The notes beneath the pieces were generated by a model. The model did no database searches. It worked only from the letters and a program-made list of their open reading frames with translations, and had not been told where the DNA came from. From the UHGV virus genome UHGV-0139916: DNA of 23,030 nt. One strand, 5' to 3'. This document shows, in pieces, positions 13,806-22,793 of the stretch. This stretch comes from a virus. How positions within the stretch are numbered: position 1 is the first letter of the stretch; each line of letters starts with the position of its first letter. Made by a program: the position numbers and the translations under genes.

Positions 13806-15218
13806 ATGGCTACGTGGCAACAGGGTATTAATTCTGGTGGTTTTCTGGCTGGCATTGGTGCGCAAAACGAGAATGCGCCAAAGGCAAGCGACATTAACGC
13901 AACGCTTGGTCTGATCCGCGAAAACAATGAACTGGCTCGATCAGGTGCAAATAACGTTGGTCTGACCGCGTTACGTGGTCTGGCTGGAGTTGCTGATATT
14001 TATAAGCAGGAACAGCAACAGAAAGCTATTAGTGCGTTCAATAAGGTTCACGCTGATGCATGGGCTTCTGGTGATCCATCGGGACTATTTAAGTTTGCCC
14101 AGGAAAATCCAGCGTTTGTTGCACAGGCACAACAGGCGTTTTCCGGTCTTAATGAGCAGCAACGCAACGATATGGGCGATTTAGCCATGAGGGCTAACGT
14201 CGCTCTTTCTCAGGGACCGGAAGCCTACAGTAAATTCATTACTGACAACAAGGACAGGTTAAATCGCGTGGGTGCTAATGCTGACTGGATGATTCAGACA
14301 GGTATCCAGAATCCCGAGCAGCTATCACACATGCTGACTACTATGTCTCTCGGTGCACTTGGGCCAGAAAAGGCGTTTGCTGTTCAGGACAAGATAGCTG
14401 GTCGTGAGATTGACCGAGGCAGGCTGGCAGAGACAATCCGCAGCAATCAGGCTGGCGAGGCGCTAACAGCACGAGGCCAGAACATCACGATGCGCGGTCA
14501 GGACTTATCTGCTTCTACTACGCGACGCGGTCAGGATTTAGCGATGCAGAGAGCATCAATGAAAGGGGCGGTTGGGAATAATGAGCGCACAGTTCAACTA
14601 GCAGACGGAAGAACTGTAACCGTAGGCGGGAAACTTCATGGTGCTGGTGCTAACGCGTTCTACGAAGGTATAGACAATGAGGGGAACATGGTTCGCGTTC
14701 CTGCTGGCTCTATTGCTGCTCCGGCCACGTCGGCAGCAAGCGCGCAGAATTACGCAATGAAGAAAGATCTTGATGCAATTTCTGGTGCATCAATTGACGA
14801 TCTTGGCTTCATGACTGGCATTACAGGCTTTTCAGGTTCTCCTGCTCTTGGTGCAGATATTCGTAGCCGTGCATCTGGTGGTGATCAGAGGAAACTATAC
14901 AACGCTGCACAGCGAATCCAAGGAAAGATGCAGAATCAGGGCATTGCAGCAGCCAGAGACATGGGGGCATCCGGTATCAACACCGTTGCAGAAGCAAAGA
15001 TGTATTTTCAAGGTATGCCACAGGTTGATTTCTCAAGCCCTGAAGCACTGCAACAATCAATGCGCGACATTCAGCAATATACCGACAATTACAACCAGCA
15101 ATATAACGTTAATGTCGGTAATGGAGGGAAGAAATCATCAATGCAACAGCCGCCTACTCAGCAATCAGCAGGAGGTAGCTACACGTCAAAATCAGGCATT
15201 CAATTTACGGTGGAATGA
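13806..15218 (+). CDS. ejection protein, P22 gp20-like (470 aa)
   Basis: Synteny and length (P22 gp20 about 471 aa). Confidence 0.78.
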
Positions 15219-17056
15219 TGAAAGTAACTGCAAACGGTAAGACATTTACCTTTCCTGATGGTACGAGCACCGAAGATATTGGCACCGCCATTGATGAGTA
15301 TTTTGCTGGTCAGGCTGTTCAGCAACAAATAGTTAATCAGGCCAATAATGCACCAACACGGGAAGAACCATCATTGATGCAACAAGCTGGCGATTGGCTC
15401 ACTGGTGGTCAAAGTGCAGGGCAAATTGCAGAACAGGCTGGTCGTGGTCTGGTAAACATACCATTTGACGTATTACAGGGCGGCGCAAGTCTGATTAATG
15501 CAATCAGTCAGGGGCTTGGTGGCCCCAAGGTTTTGGATGATGTCTATCGTCCAGTCGATCGACCGACAGACCCCTACGCTCAAGCTGGAGAAACAATTGG
15601 CGGGTATTTAGTTCCAGGAGTTGGAACGGCAGGAAGCATGGCTATTGGATCACTGGCAGAAGCCGCGAACCAGAAAGGCGATTTCGCGCAAAATGCAGCC
15701 ATAAACGCCGGAGTTAACCTTGCCGCTCAGGGTGTTCTTTCCGCAGCAGCAAAGGGAATAGGGCGTGGAATAACTGCTATAAAAGGCGATATCGCGCCAG
15801 AAGTAGCGAAAAAAATTGCCACCTCAGAATCGATGGGCGTGACACCAATGACATCTGATGTTATCCCGCCGAAAAATGCTTTCACTCGCGGACTTACTCA
15901 GGATGCTGAGGGGGCTTTGCTCGGGACAGGCTCAAAGCGAGCGGAGCAATATGCAACGCGTAGTAAGCTGGTAAGCAATTATTTTGACCGTTTTGGTGAG
16001 TACAACCCTGATGATGTGGTGAAATCTCTGACCACCACGTTAAGGGGACGGAAGGAGGCCGCTGGCGCTGTTATCAATGACGTCACCAATAAAATGGGTA
16101 ATGCCGCAGTTGATACCACAAATACCATGAATGCTCTGAATACAGCGATCGCAAGACAGGAACGGCTTGGGACGTCTGCCAATCAAAGCCTGCTTACATC
16201 CTTGCGTAACCTACGTGAAGAATTAGCAAACCCTGCAACTGATTTGGATGTTACGTTTGATCTCCTACGTCAGCACAGAACAGCATTTAGATCTAATGTT
16301 CAGGGGGATGCTATGGTCTTCCCCAACCAGGCAAAAGCAGCTACCAATATGGTAGAGAATGCAATGTCAAAAGACCTTCGTAACGCAGTTGCAAAAAACC
16401 TCGGTGCATCAGACGCAGCAAAATACCTTAAAGCAAATTCCGATTATGCAAACGTTTATAATAAGGTGCTTAATAAAAACATTGCTAACAAGCTCAACAA
16501 GGCAAGCAGTGAAGCCAGTCCTGAACTTATAAATACTGTTGTATTAAGCAGAAAACCATCTGACGTGAAACGAATCTGGAGCGCATTGGATGATAAAGGG
16601 AAAGATGCTATGCGTGCAGCTTACGTCAGCAAAATAGCGGAAAAGGCCGGTGACTCTCCAGCCAAGTTCATCACGGAAGTTAATAAGCTGAAATCTCAGT
16701 CAGGCGGTGAAATTTACAACACTATTTTTTCTGGAAAGCACATGAAAGAACTTGATGCTCTTCATGAAGTTCTACAGCAAACAGCAAGATCAGACACCGC
16801 AAATGTAGTAACTCAGACGGGGCAATCGCAAGCCAACAGGATAAGGACGATTGGCGCAACTACGACTCTTGGCGTATCAATGGGGCTTGAGGCTGGTTTC
16901 GGTGCAATGATGCGCTTGTATGAATCCAAAGCAGCAAGGAATGCGCTCTTACGTCTGGCAAACACTAAAGCTGGAACGCCAGCTTATGAAAGAGCGCTAA
17001 ATCAGGCGGCTACTGCCGTGCGCCCGCTCTTAGTTAACGAAGCTACCCGGCAGTAG
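15215..17056 (+). CDS. ejection protein, P22 gp16-like (613 aa)
   Basis: Synteny and length (P22 gp16 about 609 aa); ATGA start/stop overlap with the preceding gene. Confidence 0.78.
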
Positions 17057-17078: not shown

Positions 17079-17573
17079 TTATTTTATAGTTTTTATGAAT
17101 TCTTTATTAAATCCCTTCGCTTCTCCGGGGTATCTTCCGAAGACAATTTTTATAAAAACAGAAAAAATAAAGATAGCAAAGCTTAACAACAATTGCAGTA
17201 TCATTGGAACCCAAAGAACTACAGGCTCTATATTCATGAAACCAAATATTCTTCCGGCGATCATGGCGAAGTACCACACTGTTATCAGCAAACTTAGTGG
17301 CATATGAATTACTGATATTACCAATCCAAGAGCATCAGTAATTCTGTTTTCAAATTTTTCAGGGGAAAACTTTTCTTTAAGGTAATTCAGTGCGCAGGCC
17401 TCATTCTCTGGATTTTCAGCATTTTTCCCTATAGCAATAGAAATCTCAGATATCCTTGATTCAATTCTTTTACGTTTAATAAAACTAGAAAAAAAGAACC
17501 ACGCAATCTGCAACCCTATCCCCAGAAATAGAGTTGCGGCAACTAGCACAGCGTAACTCATAGAATCAGACAC
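17079..17573 (-). CDS. AT-rich integral membrane protein (about 160-164 aa, 3 predicted TM helices); candidate superinfection-exclusion protein at the P22 sieA position
   Basis: Minus-strand ORF. AAGGAGG lies 5 nt upstream of an in-frame GTG (plus 17571-17573); ATG at 17561 is the alternative start. Three hydrophobic segments ([21 protein letters not shown]; [26 protein letters not shown]; [28 protein letters not shown]). The SieA analogy is positional only. Confidence 0.6.
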
Positions 17574-17603
17574 ACCAACCTCCTTAGTTTTGCGCAGGAT
17601 ACC

Positions 17604-17969
17604 ATGAAAAAAGTTAACATTGGAAACGTACCAAAGATGCTCGTTCCGCTCTTTGAGAGCGGTACAATTGTGTTTTGTAGAGACTTTCCAGAATGGCAAC
17701 GCCTGCATCAAAAACTTGGCGTTGACGTGCATGACTCGGACGCCAACGGAGCGTCTCATACAATGAGTAGCGAGAATGGTGTTTTGCATGTGATAGGCGT
17801 GTTCAATGGCAAACTATCTACTATTGCCCATGAGTGCGCTCACATGGCATTCGATATCTGCTCAAGGGTAGGTGTTGATGTTGAACCAGGAAGAGCCAAC
17901 GAGACTTACTGCTACTTAATGAGCAGGCTTGTTGAGTTCTGCGAGCGACATATCAAAAAGCCGGAGTGA
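17604..17969 (+). CDS. hypothetical protein (121 aa) with an HExxH motif ([11 protein letters not shown]); possible small zincin-like metalloprotein
   Basis: ORF divergent from the membrane protein, weak AGGA RBS. The single HECAH motif is followed by acidic residues. No family confidently recognised. Confidence 0.5.
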
Positions 17970-18254: not shown

Positions 18255-18275
18255 CCACCGTCAGGTGGTTTTTTT
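18255..18275 (+). terminator. plus-strand intrinsic terminator embedded in the 3' codons of mnt
   Basis: CCACC-GTCA-GGTGG followed by seven T on the plus strand. The same bases encode ...KKTT-stop of Mnt on the minus strand. Confidence 0.45.
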
Positions 18276-18512
18276 GTACAAATCCTTCAGCGTATCAAAC
18301 ACCATCTTCTTAACAAGTTCGGACTGCTCATCAGCGATGCGTTCTGCATCGTCTCGATAGCCTGAAATTTTGGATGGCCTTGATACAGCATCAGTCACTA
18401 TCTGAACTAATTCTGAATTAAGAGAGCAGCCATTGGATTTGGCTCGCTGTTTTAGTTTTTCCTTTAATTCGTAAGGTAGCCGCAGATTAAATTGCGGGTC
18501 ATCTCTTCCCAT
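18261..18512 (-). CDS. mnt: Mnt repressor (ribbon-helix-helix, Arc/MetJ fold), 83 aa
   Basis: MGRDDPQFNLRLPYELKEKLKQRAKSNGCSLNSELVQIVTDAVSRPSKISGYRDDAERIADEQSELVKKMVFDTLKDLYKKTT is near-identical in length and sequence to P22 Mnt as recalled (same C-terminal AERLADEQSELVKKMVFDTLKDLYKKTT). Confidence 0.9.
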   Translation of the reverse strand: MGRDDPQFNLRLPYELKEKLKQRAKSNGCSLNSELVQIVTDAVSRPSKISGYRDDAERIADEQSELVKKMVFDTLKDLYKKTT

Positions 18513-18577
18513 TCTTGATGCCTCGCTCTTGTGAGTGGATCGGCATCTTATTATCTGCTGGTTGCATCCTCAATAAT

Positions 18578-18588
18578 ACCACGGTGGT
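18578..18588. promoter_or_regulatory. Mnt-operator-like palindrome ACCAC-G-GTGGT in the mnt/tailspike intergenic region
   Basis: An 11-bp sequence with perfect 5-bp inverted arms, about 70 bp upstream of the mnt start. Its CCACGGTGG core matches what I recall of the P22 mnt operator. Confidence 0.4.
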
Positions 18589-18931
18589 CGTATTTTTTGA
18601 TTGATAATGAATCACTGCGGCGATTCCTTGTATTTGGAGCAAATTAAATGACAGATATTATAAATAGGAATTGTTATTTAATAATGTTTGAAAATAAAAA
18701 TCATGGACGATAGGAATAAAGGTAGTACTTGTTTTTATTTTTGTAAGTGACGCATTAAGCGCATAAATAATATGCCTGTTGATCAAGATTCTTGAGTATT
18801 GTAAAATAATCGTTTTGTTCATGTTGCATGGTTTTTAAATGAATAGAAGGTTATTTTTCAAAACAATTGCATCTTTGTCTGCAGTCATTCCGTTTTCTTC
18901 AATATCTAAATCTTCAAACAGGATGACTAAT

Positions 18932-21430
18932 ATGCCTAATATAACTCCAAATGTTGTGATAGGTATGCCGTCGCAACTCTTCACAATGGCTAGTTCTTTT
19001 AAAACCGTAGCAAATGGAAAAATTTATATCGGTAAGATTGACACAGATCCGCTAAATCCAGAAAACCAGATTCCAGTATATCTGGAACGAGAAGATGGTA
19101 CTTATGTTCAGGTGCCACAGCCAATCGTTATCAATGCTGCTGGATACCCGGTATACAACGGACAGATTTCCAAGTTCGTAACTGTGCAAGGTCATTCTAT
19201 GGCTGTTTATGATGCGTATGGAGCGCAGCAGTTCTATTTTCCTAACGTACTGAAGTATGACCCGGATCAGCTACGGCAGCAATTAGAAGACCCGGATGGT
19301 GCTAAAAAATATTCCGAATTGCAGATTGCACGATGGCGTGATGAAACAGATCCACGTGGCTGGGGAGCAAAAGGTGATGGCATTGCGGATGATACACAGG
19401 CATTTGAACAACTGGAAGATTATGTTACGTCTATGGTTGTTGATATGCGAGGTAAAACTTATTTTACCTCCAGAACGTTTTTCAGGAATACCTATATTAA
19501 CGGGAAATGGTTGGTTGGAGGGAAAGTCATTCCTGTTAATGGTGAACTAGTTACAAGCAAGCGACCTGCATGGGACATTAATGCCATTGGACATGAGTCT
19601 AATGCCGCTATACGGTTTATACCAATTGCTAATGGTCGCGGACAGATAAGAACATTGCAAACTTTTGCATATGATCCTGTAAGCAGAGCTTATTATTCCA
19701 ATCACAATACAGAAATAGATGGAAACCCTACTACTGTTTCTGTCTGGAATAAATATTCTGCTGATTCAAAAATTAAAAATACATCTTCTGATTTTATGCT
19801 TCCTGAGGACAGGCTGGGTCATCAGGGAATAGCGGTACAGAATATAGATAATACGATTAAGTTATGGACTACAGCACCAGATACACCGGCAGGCTCTACT
19901 GCCCATACTGACTTTGATTTTTCTGTAGGTGGTTCACATGGGGTTGTTAGATTTTCCTGGAGGAGCAACTCCGAGGGGGAAATAGATTCTCCTGAAATGT
20001 TTAGGGTTGTAGAAGGAAATCGTACAGCGGGTAGTTCAACTACTCCGACTATTACATTAGACGGAAAATGGATGATTATCCGTTTCACCGACAATGGCGA
20101 ATACAATAAGCAAACGTTTCGTGTATTTTCCACTGATATTTTTGATAAACCCGGTGATTATTCCGCCCTGTGTACTCATGAGTTTACTCTTCAACTTTCA
20201 CAAGTCGGTGGTGATGAAACAACATCACTTAATGGATTTTGTTCTGATGGAGCACATCTGTATATGTATTGTGGAAATACTAAGTTTGGGCAGACTCAAT
20301 ATTTATCAAGTTGTGATCTGTTGGGGAATGATGTGCAGAAAGCCATTTCTAATTTGGGTGATACGGATTTACCTAGAATTATTGGCTCTACCCCTACCTT
20401 CCGCGAGTCAGAAGGGATGCATTTTGTTGATTACGATGGCGTTCTTTATCCATCGGTAACAATAGTATCTGAACATTCTGATGTTATGGGGGCAACCAGA
20501 CGTACCATTCTGATTTATGCGCTTGGTGCAGGAGATAAAAGAACGCTATCTCTACCATCTAAAGAAATATGTATCTCTGATAATCCAGAGGCGGTTCCTC
20601 ATGTAATTTATTCAGATAATACAACCTGGGAACAAAACTCACCTATAAAAGCACTAAAGTTCAACAACGAGCAAGGAACCGGTTTGCTTTATGAATGGCA
20701 GAGAAAAGGCGTTGGTTATTTTCAGATGTATATGAGTACCTCTAATGTAGCATTAATGGCTGCGAATGGGGCTGATTTACATCTAGGAAGTAATAATGTC
20801 TGGAGATGGAAAGTAAGTCCAAATGGTCACTGGCATCCTTATCTGGATAATTCTTACAGTGTTGGTGTACCAGATAACAGGCCAACTCAGATTTATGCTG
20901 TTTCAGGCTCAATAAACACCTCAGATGGTAGGGAAAAAAGCGACCCGCTAACAACGAGTGAACTCAGTCTGAATATGTCCCCTGGTTATGAAGGTGATGC
21001 AATTTTGGATGCATGGGGAGATATCAGGATCGTAGCTTTTCGCTGGCTTGAGGCTATCAGGGAAAAGGGAGATGGTGCCCGCTGGCATTTTGGTGTCATA
21101 GCACAACAGGTGCGAGATGCTTTCCTCGCTCATGGGATTGATGGGACCCGGTTTGGCCTTCTCTGTTACGATGAATGGGATGATAAATACGAGCCAGTGA
21201 TGGCGGTCAGGACGATTACTGAAGTTGTGGATGGTGTCGAAATTGAGAAGGAAGAAGAATACGAAACAGAAGAGCGAACTCTGGTACGCAAGGCCGGAAA
21301 TAGGTGGGGTATCCGTGCTGACCAGTGCTTATGGCTTGAGTCTGCTTATTTGCGTAGAAGAATCGAAAAAATAGAGTCACGTCTTGCAGCGATTGAAAAA
21401 AAACTTTTTGACAATGAATGCAAATTATAA
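18932..21430 (+). CDS. tailspike (832 aa): P22 gp9-type head-binding N-terminus, AT-rich beta-helix-type receptor-binding/glycanase domain, C-terminal intramolecular chaperone (S74-type) domain
   Basis: From ATG 18932, [50 protein letters not shown]...[13 protein letters not shown]...NVLKYDPDQ aligns with the P22 gp9 head-binding domain as recalled. [15 protein letters not shown] motif typical of pectate-lyase-like beta-helix proteins follows. SDGREK at 20921-20938 matches the endosialidase-type autocleavage motif. Confidence 0.9.
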
Positions 21431-21659: not shown

Positions 21660-22793
21660 TTATTTGTTAAGAGCTAAGACATCTTTTCTGAAATTTTCAT
21701 GATCTCCATCCAGAAGAAATTGTGCAAGGGATTTGAATTTGTTATAAATCAAGTCAAAATTAATAAGGTCTGAATGTGCAGCTAATGACTTATACATCAT
21801 TTTGAAAAAAAATCTTTTATCATTGTCTGGCACTTTTTTGTTTTTTTCAATGGCAGCTAGATGTTCAATGCAAATAACAACCCAAGCACTAAACATCTTT
21901 ACTTTTTCATTGGTTTGTTTTTTGGATATTAAAATGTAATTTAATCCGCATTGTAAAACAAAAATTCTATTTTCTACTGGGAAACTAACTTTAGAAAGAT
22001 GTTGTTGATCGTGCCCGTTAAGAATATAATACTCCTTATCTGATAAAACTGAAACTGTATTAGATACGGTTAATGCATGACATGAAAAAATCATGTCTTC
22101 GTAAACAGGTATTGATGGGTTGAATAAAACCCCATTATTAATAAGCAATTCTCGCTTAAATAACTTGAAAATTTTCAGTGATCTGAATAAATGATTTTTG
22201 ATAATATCTGCTTTGTTAGCATTTTTTCTGAATGCCCGCACGGGTACTCCTCGCCCTGTAGATGATGCTTGCTTAAAATATACAATATCGCTATTATTTT
22301 TATCTGCAATATGCAGCCCATCATAAAGTAACTCTGAATGAATTGCATCATCTGAATCTAGAAAGAAAACATAACGTCCTTTGGCTGCTTTTATTCCTTC
22401 ATTGCGTGGAGCTGAAGCATTTCCGGAGGGGATTTCCCTGCGAATTACACGCCGGTTTATATCCGGTGCAATAAAATACTCAATTGCTGCAACACTTTTA
22501 TCTGTTGAACCATCATCAATAAAAATCACTTCAAATCTGTTTTTATCTAGCGTTTGTGAATTAATAGACTTAATACATTCAATAATTAAGTTTTCTCTGT
22601 TATGAACAGGTATTATAATTGAAATGTCAAACTTATTATTTGAATCAATAGTATGTATAACATTTTTTATTTTATATAAGGCTGAATGGATGGCTATATC
22701 TAAAATAGCTTCAGATATAATGTTTTCTTTTTTAATGTTGCCTTTTATGTTAAAATATAAACAATTAGTACGAAGAACAAAATCCACGCTCAT
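21660..22793 (-). CDS. family-2 (GT-A) glycosyltransferase (377 aa from ATG 22793), AT-rich
   Basis: Motifs SIIIPVHNRENLIIECIKSINSQT, FIDDGSTDKS and FFLDSDD (DXD-type). No C-terminal TM segments, so not GtrB-like. The ATG abuts a tetranucleotide repeat and there is no Shine-Dalgarno sequence. Confidence 0.85.
   Translation of the reverse strand: MSVDFVLRTNCLYFNIKGNIKKENIISEAILDIAIHSALYKIKNVIHTIDSNNKFDISIIIPVHNRENLIIECIKSINSQTLDKNRFEVIFIDDGSTDKSVAAIEYFIAPDINRRVIRREIPSGNASAPRNEGIKAAKGRYVFFLDSDDAIHSELLYDGLHIADKNNSDIVYFKQASSTGRGVPVRAFRKNANKADIIKNHLFRSLKIFKLFKRELLINNGVLFNPSIPVYEDMIFSCHALTVSNTVSVLSDKEYYILNGHDQQHLSKVSFPVENRIFVLQCGLNYILISKKQTNEKVKMFSAWVVICIEHLAAIEKNKKVPDNDKRFFFKMMYKSLAAHSDLINFDLIYNKFKSLAQFLLDGDHENFRKDVLALNK

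Follow-up and report, generated by a model that had tools for sequence, protein, structure and literature searches.

The interval between the mnt gene and the tailspike gene in the viral genome UHGV-0139916 is a mosaic junction inside the late operon of a P22-like (Lederbergvirus) phage or prophage. The DNA analyzed is a stretch of 23,030 nt (the window, to which all positions refer) that represents a portion of such a genome, and the interval, which occupies positions 18513-18931 (419 bp), is built of three parts. The first (18513 to ~18600) holds the control region of the P22 ant moron in an mnt-only form, the second (18615-18660) is a stranded leader of the ancestral gene 9 together with its start codon, and the third (18661-18931) arrived together with a different 5′ end of the tailspike gene. 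Comparison with related loci makes it rather probable that the mnt-only control region serves autoregulation in cis and an action of Mnt in trans, next to the relic gene-9 leader and the imported tailspike element. The most interesting lead of this locus is a conserved, signal-like extension of the tailspike.

Composition of the Interval between mnt and the Tailspike Gene

The genes are arranged in the order gene 16 homologue (15215-17056), small open reading frames (ORFs), mnt, tailspike gene. The G+C content (GC) of the interval is 0.285-0.35 vs. 0.42-0.49 in the flanks, and the whole mnt-tailspike region shows a 100% match to the IMG/VR contig UViG_3300045988_095810. The features of mnt and of the three parts are as follows:

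18255-18268, both strands: terminator-like bidirectional hairpin at the mnt 3′ end, CCACCGTCAGGTGG followed by a T run on both strands
18261-18512, minus strand: mnt, an ORF of 83 amino acids, Gln6 class, N-terminus MGRDDPQFNLR
Complement of 18521-18524, minus strand: Shine-Dalgarno sequence of mnt, GAGG
18545-18573, minus strand: putative promoter Pmnt, −35 TTGAGG (complement of 18568-18573), 17-bp spacer, −10 TAAGAT (complement of 18545-18550)
18576-18590, no strand: Mnt operator ATACCACGGTGGTCG, perfect core 18578-18588, centre 18583, homologous to P22 Omnt
18615-18660, plus strand: relic gene-9 leader with the Shine-Dalgarno sequence GGAG (18636-18639) and the start ATGACAGATATTA (18648-18660)
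18661-18931, plus strand: AT-rich element of 271 bp, imported with the tailspike 5′ end

The initial annotation had described mnt as essentially P22-like and the interval as AT-rich and devoid of arc and ant. Both descriptions were borne out, as the product of mnt is 75% identical to P22 Mnt, and neither tblastn nor blastn-short revealed any remnant of the two missing genes. With P22 Arc as a tblastn query against the 23-kb window, the mnt gene itself was the sole match, and P22 Ant gave no match at all. When the interval was compared by blastn-short with the immI regions of P22, L256 (an IMG/VR locus) and the E. coli prophage E4, nothing fell in arc or ant, not even a short remnant; the matches were confined to the operator and the gene-9 leader, plus the AT-rich element in E4 only.

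In the alignment with P22 immI, one breakpoint follows the operator immediately on its right side, and the other precedes gene 9 by 33 nt. The ~1.3 kb that comprise arc, ant and the ant terminator in P22 are replaced by ~24 nt, which separate the operator from the gene-9 leader. Only ~100 bp of the interval are thus immI-derived, and about three quarters of it, i.e., the relic gene-9 start and the element imported with the tailspike 5′ end, are unrelated to immI, which the initial annotation had missed. Its picture of an empty spacer was right as far as arc and ant are concerned and wrong in taking the interval as entirely non-coding, since a 31-codon extension of the tailspike gene lies there. 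Judged as a complete immI, the window lacks arc, ant and a strong Pant, and retains the Mnt operator; judged as an mnt-only ant moron, it has mnt without arc and ant between the last ejection-protein gene and the tailspike gene.

The Mnt Protein and Its Operator

Mnt of the window comprises both domains of its P22 homologue. The N-terminal ribbon-helix-helix (residues 3-50) matches the Pfam family PF03869 Arc at 7.8e-20, and the C-terminal tetramerisation helix (residues 53-80) matches PF11423 Repressor_Mnt at 2.3e-18; the protein aligns to PDB 1mnt at 7.5e-33, and its tetramerisation helix matches PDB 1qey. At the strand positions of P22 Mnt that we take to be the base-contacting ones (Arg2, His6, Asn8 and Arg10), the window protein bears Arg, Gln, Asn and Arg (GRDDPQFNLR), so that His6 is replaced by Gln. 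The strand QFNLR of this Gln6 class is identical to that of Arc. Going by these residues, the Gln6 Mnt is a specificity variant and not P22 Mnt proper.

The palindrome ACCACGGTGGT (18578-18588), noted upstream of mnt in the initial annotation as operator-like, falls on P22 Omnt in the alignment and matches it (AGGTCCACGGTGGACCT) column for column; the operator as a whole (18576-18590) lies two bases beyond the −35 of Pmnt. The sequence ACCACNGTGGT occurs once in the window vs. 0.04 times expected from shuffles. To place the operator in a broader context, Mnt loci were gathered from GenBank phages, E. coli genomes, GTDB genomes and IMG/VR. The operator family of the Gln6 class is AAGACCAC-N-GTGGTCTT, with the right arm variable as GTGGTC(T/G), and the full family consensus is AGACCAC-N-GTGGTCT (AAGACCACGGTGGTCTT). 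The arms are conserved among 70 loci while the centre base may be G, C, A or T, as would be expected of a functional symmetric site. The window operator departs from the consensus at two positions: its left arm is AATACCAC instead of AAGACCAC, a G to T change unique to this contig, and the G of its right arm is common to ~17 loci.

The operator form found with the P22-type His6 Mnt is AGGTCCAC-N-GTGGACCT, in agreement with GTGGACC being the best half-site of P22 Mnt (PMC2726951). The half-site of the Gln6 class is GTGGTCT. The pairing of Gln6 with GTGGTCT holds in Mnt proteins 57-100% identical to that of the window, complete immI regions included. A scan of IMG/VR with the Gln6 operator detected it in the complete immI of three loci (L205, L256 and L267), where Mnt starts with MARDDPQFNLRM, Arc and Ant show 60-64% and 54-66% identity to their P22 counterparts, respectively, and the ant promoter is strong. 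The same scan located it in loci of the ST64T/L type and in further mnt-only loci with an Mnt 63-71% identical to that of the window. A third Mnt class (MYSKYDEAQFHLR; JEP4, ET729) has the operator TACC(G/A)-TTT-CGGTA. Taken together, these comparisons indicate that residue 6 is paired consistently with the half-site across backgrounds, His6 with GTGGACC and Gln6 with GTGGTCT. As a side observation, six loci (L084, L085, L087, L089, L130 and L173) with a His6-type Mnt and ant show no recognisable Omnt palindrome at the usual position, and unrelated sequence replaces the region upstream of their mnt; arc was detected in the former four and not in L130 or L173.

No extra Mnt operators were found in the window or in the complete Gally genome, where a search allowing up to 3 mismatches yielded a single operator-like site.

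In the window copy, the Arg of the NGRS motif at the start of helix B is replaced by Cys at codon 29 (Arg28 in P22 numbering, aligned with Arg31 of Arc). The underlying codon change, CGC to TGC, was found only in copies of the same IMG/VR contig, and all other Mnt classes, as well as Arc, carry Arg at this position. Together with the two non-consensus operator positions, the Arg28 to Cys change makes the window copy look weakened.

Promoters around the Operator

The putative Pmnt of the window scores 8/12 and retains the two key bases of the −10 hexamer (A in second and T in sixth position), and the P22 Pmnt (TTGAGA-17-TATCAT) lies at the same position. In every Gln6 mnt-only locus the position of Pmnt is fixed and both key −10 bases are kept, the −10 being TAAGAT in the E. 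coli type and the whole promoter reading TTGTGG-17-TATGAT in the Salmonella type. As to the rightward promoter Pant, it is TTGACA-17-TATATT (11/12) in P22 and TTGACA-17-CATCAT (10/12) in the Gln6-type complete immI L256. The homologous position of the window reads TCGGCA-17-TGCATC, i.e., both key −10 bases are missing. No rightward match of at least 9/12 with both key −10 bases was found in any mnt-only locus, and a promoter scan of the window returned no rightward site near the operator. The initial annotation had suggested that the tailspike gene is transcribed under direct Mnt control; with the rightward ant promoter gone and no equivalent present in mnt-only loci, this suggestion is not supported.

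The sequence left of the operator is common to all mnt-only forms and unlike that of both kinds of complete immI. As it is shared among mnt-only forms only, the mnt-only layout belongs to an old lineage and did not arise by a recent deletion in this genome. Hence, the retention of Mnt without arc and ant, as pointed out initially, is a fact, whereas a fresh deletion of a P22-type immI does not account for it: the form is old, widespread and already published.

Known Relatives of the mnt-Only Arrangement and Selection on mnt

The interval between gene 16 and gene 9 is termed the ant moron by Villafane et al. (2008), who described the ant morons of ST64T, ST104 and Para1 as containing only mnt and one gene of unknown function (PMC2629481). 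Phage L bears an mnt-like gene without arc, ant or sieA, and its authors weighed a new function against a remnant (PMC8022706). In SE1, ST160, Gally and vB_EcoP-720R6, mnt adjoins the tailspike gene. The mnt-only arrangement is thus a published class to which the window adds another example of modest value.

In comparison with P22 immI (mnt - Omnt/Pant/Pmnt - arc - sar - ant), the locus occupies the same site between gene 16 and the tailspike gene and shares a homologous mnt with both domains and an operator at the homologous site next to the −35 of the leftward Pmnt. It differs in lacking arc, ant, the arc-ant region that encodes sar, the Pant hexamers and the Arc operator, and in combining Gln6 with the half-site GTGGTCT instead of His6 with GTGGACC. 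The features shared with ST64T, ST104, L, SE1, ST160 and Gally are mnt with small genes of unknown function, the Gln6 strand, the operator family, Pmnt and the loss of Pant, the Mnt proteins being 68-96% identical overall. In those phages, however, the tailspike gene starts 135-148 nt from mnt, whereas in the window only 13 nt of the old gene 9 precede the inserted 271-bp element with its second tailspike start, and Arg28Cys sets the window copy apart. The gene 16-gene 9 interval of HK620 has the same hkcB/hkcC/orf59a-type neighbours and the gene-9 leader. The difference is that of mnt and ant nothing but terminator remnants is left in HK620 (the corresponding region is annotated with a bidirectional terminator tORF59A and a tMNT terminator), while the window has a full-length mnt ORF with its operator.

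Among complete E. coli genomes, 263 out of 5426 match the region. Gln6-class loci (MGRDDPQFNLR) are without arc and ant in 70/70 cases, and their mnt-to-tailspike distance is 135-148 nt, increasing to 419-431 nt in those with the AT-rich element. Loci with the P22 N-terminus and His6 (MARDDPHFNFR) carry arc in 19/19 and ant in 18/19 cases. The mnt genes of the ST160 and Gally lineages, both mnt-only, show a ratio of nonsynonymous to synonymous substitution rates (dN/dS) of 0.10 at a dS of 0.48, and the variable columns among 25 unique Gln6 mnt genes are distributed over codon positions as 15/7/32. Decayed copies also occur: Mnt is truncated in L077 and L082, the operator has point changes in L049, L058, L065 and L077, and mnt is lost altogether in E. 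coli H1827/12. As the mnt-only module is nevertheless maintained by selection, a function other than ant control in cis is called for. The alternative offered initially, that Mnt is left as an orphan regulator, fits the sequence better than direct tailspike control.

The Relic Gene-9 Start and the Imported AT-Rich Element

The relic leader shows 91% identity to the 33 nt that immediately precede gene 9 in P22, and the 13 nt of ATGACAGATATTA correspond to the beginning of gene 9 in its ordinary P22-type form. The relic start opens a 21-codon upstream ORF that ends at the stop TAG (18711-18713); it was rejected as a conserved peptide because in two lineages (the ZH063 and MSHS472 versions) a stop occurs at codon 17. 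At ~18614-18617, the window lacks 11 nt (TAGCCACGCTG-like) present in the gene-9 leader of its relatives, and this loss removes half of a short hairpin, CCGTAGC-CAT-GCTGCGG, which P22, ST160, Gally and JEP4 all retain ahead of gene 9.

The AT-rich element begins directly after the relic start and ends in a second tailspike start, ATGCCTAATATAACTCCAAATGTTGTG, the ancestral start being ATGACAGATATTACAGCAAATGTTGTA. With an identity of 87-100%, it was found in phage JEP4 as well as in 44 of the 5426 E. coli genomes, always directly upstream of the tailspike gene. Across 80 loci with related head-binding domains, the element is always accompanied by the tailspike N-terminus M[PT][ND]ITPNVVI and is present in no MTDITANVV locus. 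It also occurs in prophages with the full mnt-arc-ant set, those of E. coli E4 and MLI121 (L008 and L371), so the element is unrelated to the loss of arc and ant. Its right part serves as the gene 16-tailspike spacer in three distant phages (L111, L169 and L175) that have neither an ant moron nor a relic start; this is probably how the donor of the element looked.

Two further candidates in this region were rejected: a minus-strand ORF of 54 amino acids (18658-18822), the frame of which is broken by a 5-bp indel among relatives, and direct repeats TAATATGCCT at 18768 and 18928 as an insertion signature, which are within chance for AT-rich DNA.

An N-Terminal Extension of the Tailspike

The features at the right end of the element and beyond are as follows:

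18779-18807, plus strand: candidate sigma-70 promoter TTGATC-17-TAAAAT, 9/12, −35 18779-18784, −10 18802-18807
18839-18931, plus strand: in-frame N-terminal extension of the tailspike, 31 codons, MNRRLFFK..., twin-arginine-like
18932-21430, plus strand: tailspike in its canonical form, 832 amino acids, Shine-Dalgarno sequence AGGA (18920-18923)

The Pfam Head_binding match (9e-61) begins at residue 32 of the long ORF, i.e., at the canonical ATG 18932, and the tailspike N-terminus is 68% identical to that of P22 gp9. The C-terminus bears a Peptidase_S74 intramolecular chaperone domain (7.4e-11; 20921-21136, residues 695-766 of the long ORF), upstream of which weak endosialidase-like and beta-propeller matches are seen. 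The receptor-binding part is thus unrelated to that of P22 gp9.

The extension was included in the tailspike gene by the annotators of JEP4 and not by PGAP. It is open and in frame in all 52 loci carrying it, which comprise 13 distinct sequences of two types 69% identical to each other. Between the two types, 18 of the 29 differences lie at codon position 3 (p = 0.0014), and dN/dS is 0.24 in frame vs. 4.45 and 1.17 in the two alternative frames, both interrupted by stops; with a value of 1.06, dS of the extension is as high as that of the adjacent head-binding domain (0.73). The low dN/dS, the codon-position bias and the frame kept open in all loci indicate that the extension has been translated and is under purifying selection.

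All 13 versions contain the motif N/D-R-R-L/S-F-F-K. The consensus motif of the twin-arginine translocation (Tat) pathway, located near the N-terminus, is S/T-R-R-x-F-L-K, so the residue before RR in the extension is N/D and not S/T; we count the extension as carrying a Tat motif. The uncharged, mildly hydrophobic stretch after the motif is 15 residues long in one case and 16 residues (SIASFVALTPLSSLSN) in another, at least 12 having been looked for. M[ND]RRxFFKxIA also heads ~40 unrelated signal-like N-termini in metagenomes, and the same motif scan detected no tailspike versions more divergent than those known. No A-x-A signal-peptidase site is present in the extension, a conserved S-[IL]-S being the sole candidate, and no Shine-Dalgarno sequence precedes 18839. 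The Tat-signal profiles gave no match to the extension up to E 1 (Pfam TAT_signal) and E 10 (NCBIfam TIGR01409), models that are very short; the HMMER filters drop weak hits. When the extended N-terminus was used to search a protein database, most of the proteins retrieved were short, partial and started at the canonical Met. The extension was carried by only one of them (P0001, from E. albertii), so that little diversity was gained.

The −35 of the candidate promoter is located inside the palindrome TTGATCAA, which holds a Dam (GATC) site. Both hexamers are invariant in all window-type versions, in contrast to the centre of the 17-bp spacer; the distant type deviates at the −10 (TAATGC), and promoter-scan hits are no more numerous in this region than in shuffled sequences. 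Since the internal start at 18932 keeps a good AGGA, two tailspike isoforms, starting at 18839 and 18932, appear plausible.

A twin-arginine-type N-terminal peptide ahead of a tailspike-type protein has a precedent in Pantoea stewartii, where the trimeric beta-helix protein WceF combines a Tat signal with the tailspike fold (PMC7949094). WceF differs in being a chromosomal enzyme of an exopolysaccharide cluster without a head-binding domain, whereas in the window the peptide stands ahead of a P22-type virion tailspike with its own internal start and good Shine-Dalgarno sequence. In 5 out of 10 examined element-carrying E. coli prophages, head or other virion genes are lost while the tailspike ORF is intact, a count that covers only tailspikes with the extension. 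The five defective prophages reside in E. coli H1827/12, ET729, MSHS472, AST19 and VE-T2 (L006, L010, L011, L370 and L372); in VE-T2, an IS3 element lies between ant and the AT-rich element.

Other Genes in the Window

Three neighbouring ORFs deserve mention. The plus-strand ORF at 17604-17969 (121 amino acids) is homologous to hkcC of HK620 and orf64 of ST160 and contains an HExxH motif (IAHECAHM); it belongs to no Pfam family. The minus-strand ORF at 17079-17789 (236 amino acids, GC 0.32-0.39) has hydrophobic segments and is located at the position of P22 sieA, and it gave no significant family match. Just downstream of the tailspike gene, the minus strand of 21660-22793 encodes a family-2 glycosyltransferase (Pfam 7.2e-31; 24-33% GC), which is probably a gene for the modification of a surface polysaccharide (lysogenic conversion).

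Discussion

Probably, operator-bound Mnt would regulate in cis only its own promoter, and the tailspike gene would be transcribed by read-through of the late operon, like in other P22-like phages. For a repressor that is under selection and has a single operator beside its own promoter, an autoregulated gene with a useful target elsewhere is the simplest arrangement. In P22, prophage Mnt silences ant on superinfecting genomes. Given this and the existence of ant-bearing phages with the same operator, the selected role of mnt is most likely an action in trans: Mnt made by the prophage would silence the ant promoter of incoming relatives with the same operator and thereby protect the resident prophage from antirepressor-driven induction. 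Several points weigh against this reading. The gene ant is carried by only 3 of ~45 sampled operator-bearing phage loci (L205, L256 and L267), so the pool of trans targets may be small. The putative Pmnt matches the consensus at only 8/12 positions, and with the operator upstream of its −35, the sign of the autoregulation cannot be read from the sequence. Operator-bound Mnt could possibly act as a roadblock of late transcription into the tailspike gene. The best rightward match in the window, TTATTA-18-AATAAT (8/12), overlaps the operator; its AATAAT was created by the window-only G to T change, and we regard the match as within chance. Finally, the window copy bears Arg28Cys, the putative damaging effect of which is judged from conservation and from the biochemistry of Arc Arg31.

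If Mnt controlled the tailspike directly, it would repress a rightward promoter overlapping the operator or roadblock incoming transcripts. In all mnt-only loci that lack the AT-rich element, the tailspike start follows the operator at a distance of 60-75 nt. Purifying selection acts on mnt with no other operator in its genome, so that some target is needed, and the weak 8/12 match does overlap the window operator; Villafane et al. also raised a possible influence of Mnt/Arc on the read-through of the PLate transcript into gene 9 (PMC2629481). We nevertheless consider direct control quite improbable: no mnt-only locus retains the Pant hexamers, which score 10/12 and 11/12 in complete immI, the promoter scan is empty on the rightward strand near the operator, and gene order alone explains the adjacency. 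Moreover, close spacing is not required, because Mnt and the operator are intact in the ZH063 type, where the 271-bp element puts the operator ~350 nt from the tailspike start. That Mnt is a decaying leftover of a lost immI with no present function would agree with the Cys at the invariant Arg28, the unique change in the operator arm, the truncated and operator-mutated copies, the bare mnt/ant remnants of HK620 and the absence of mnt from H1827/12, and such a possibility was considered by the authors of the phage L study (PMC8022706). For the class it seems unlikely, as dN/dS is 0.10 at a dS of 0.48 between two lineages both devoid of arc and ant, and the operator arms and the key bases of Pmnt are kept in combination with Mnt proteins only 63-71% identical to that of the window. 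Decay may hold for this one copy and not for the module, which is selected as a class while individual copies erode, and the present one may be impaired.

It could also be supposed that the AT-rich spacer controls tailspike translation, either as a structured leader of the mRNA or by encoding a small RNA. An inverted repeat (18883-18895/18916-18928) can pair over the Shine-Dalgarno sequence, as seen in minimum-free-energy folds, and P22 has an antisense RNA, sar, in its immI region (PMC2629481). However, the folding energy is no better than that of shuffled sequences (z = 0.06 and −1.47, not significant), Rfam gave no match below E 0.8, the sole one being a chance microRNA match at 0.8, a single stem substitution in the ZH063 type is uncompensated, and the segment from 18839 onward evolves as a coding sequence. 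An RNA-based role therefore appears very improbable.

A different proposal, which we put forward tentatively and hold to be unlikely, gives Mnt no part. The imported element would be an expression unit of its own, with the promoter at 18779-18807 and the start at 18839, producing a long tailspike isoform with a twin-arginine export signal, while the short isoform from 18932 would build virions. The Tat pathway exports folded and oligomeric proteins, and a lysogen or a defective prophage might thus export the assembled tailspike, a protein that cuts or binds polysaccharides, to the periplasm to remodel its own O-antigen or capsule receptor. Such an export unit is suggested by the coding-type evolution of the extension, the invariant promoter hexamers, the retention of the tailspike by defective prophages and the existence of tailspike folds with Tat signals.

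The covariation of residue 6 with the operator and the selection acting on mnt-only modules represent modest additions. The natural Mnt variants provide a clean pairing between a residue and operator bases on very different backbones, which extends the classic work on engineered Mnt specificity. If the extension is functional, it would point to an exported tailspike encoded by the prophage, and with it to a novel way in which lysogens change their own phage receptor.

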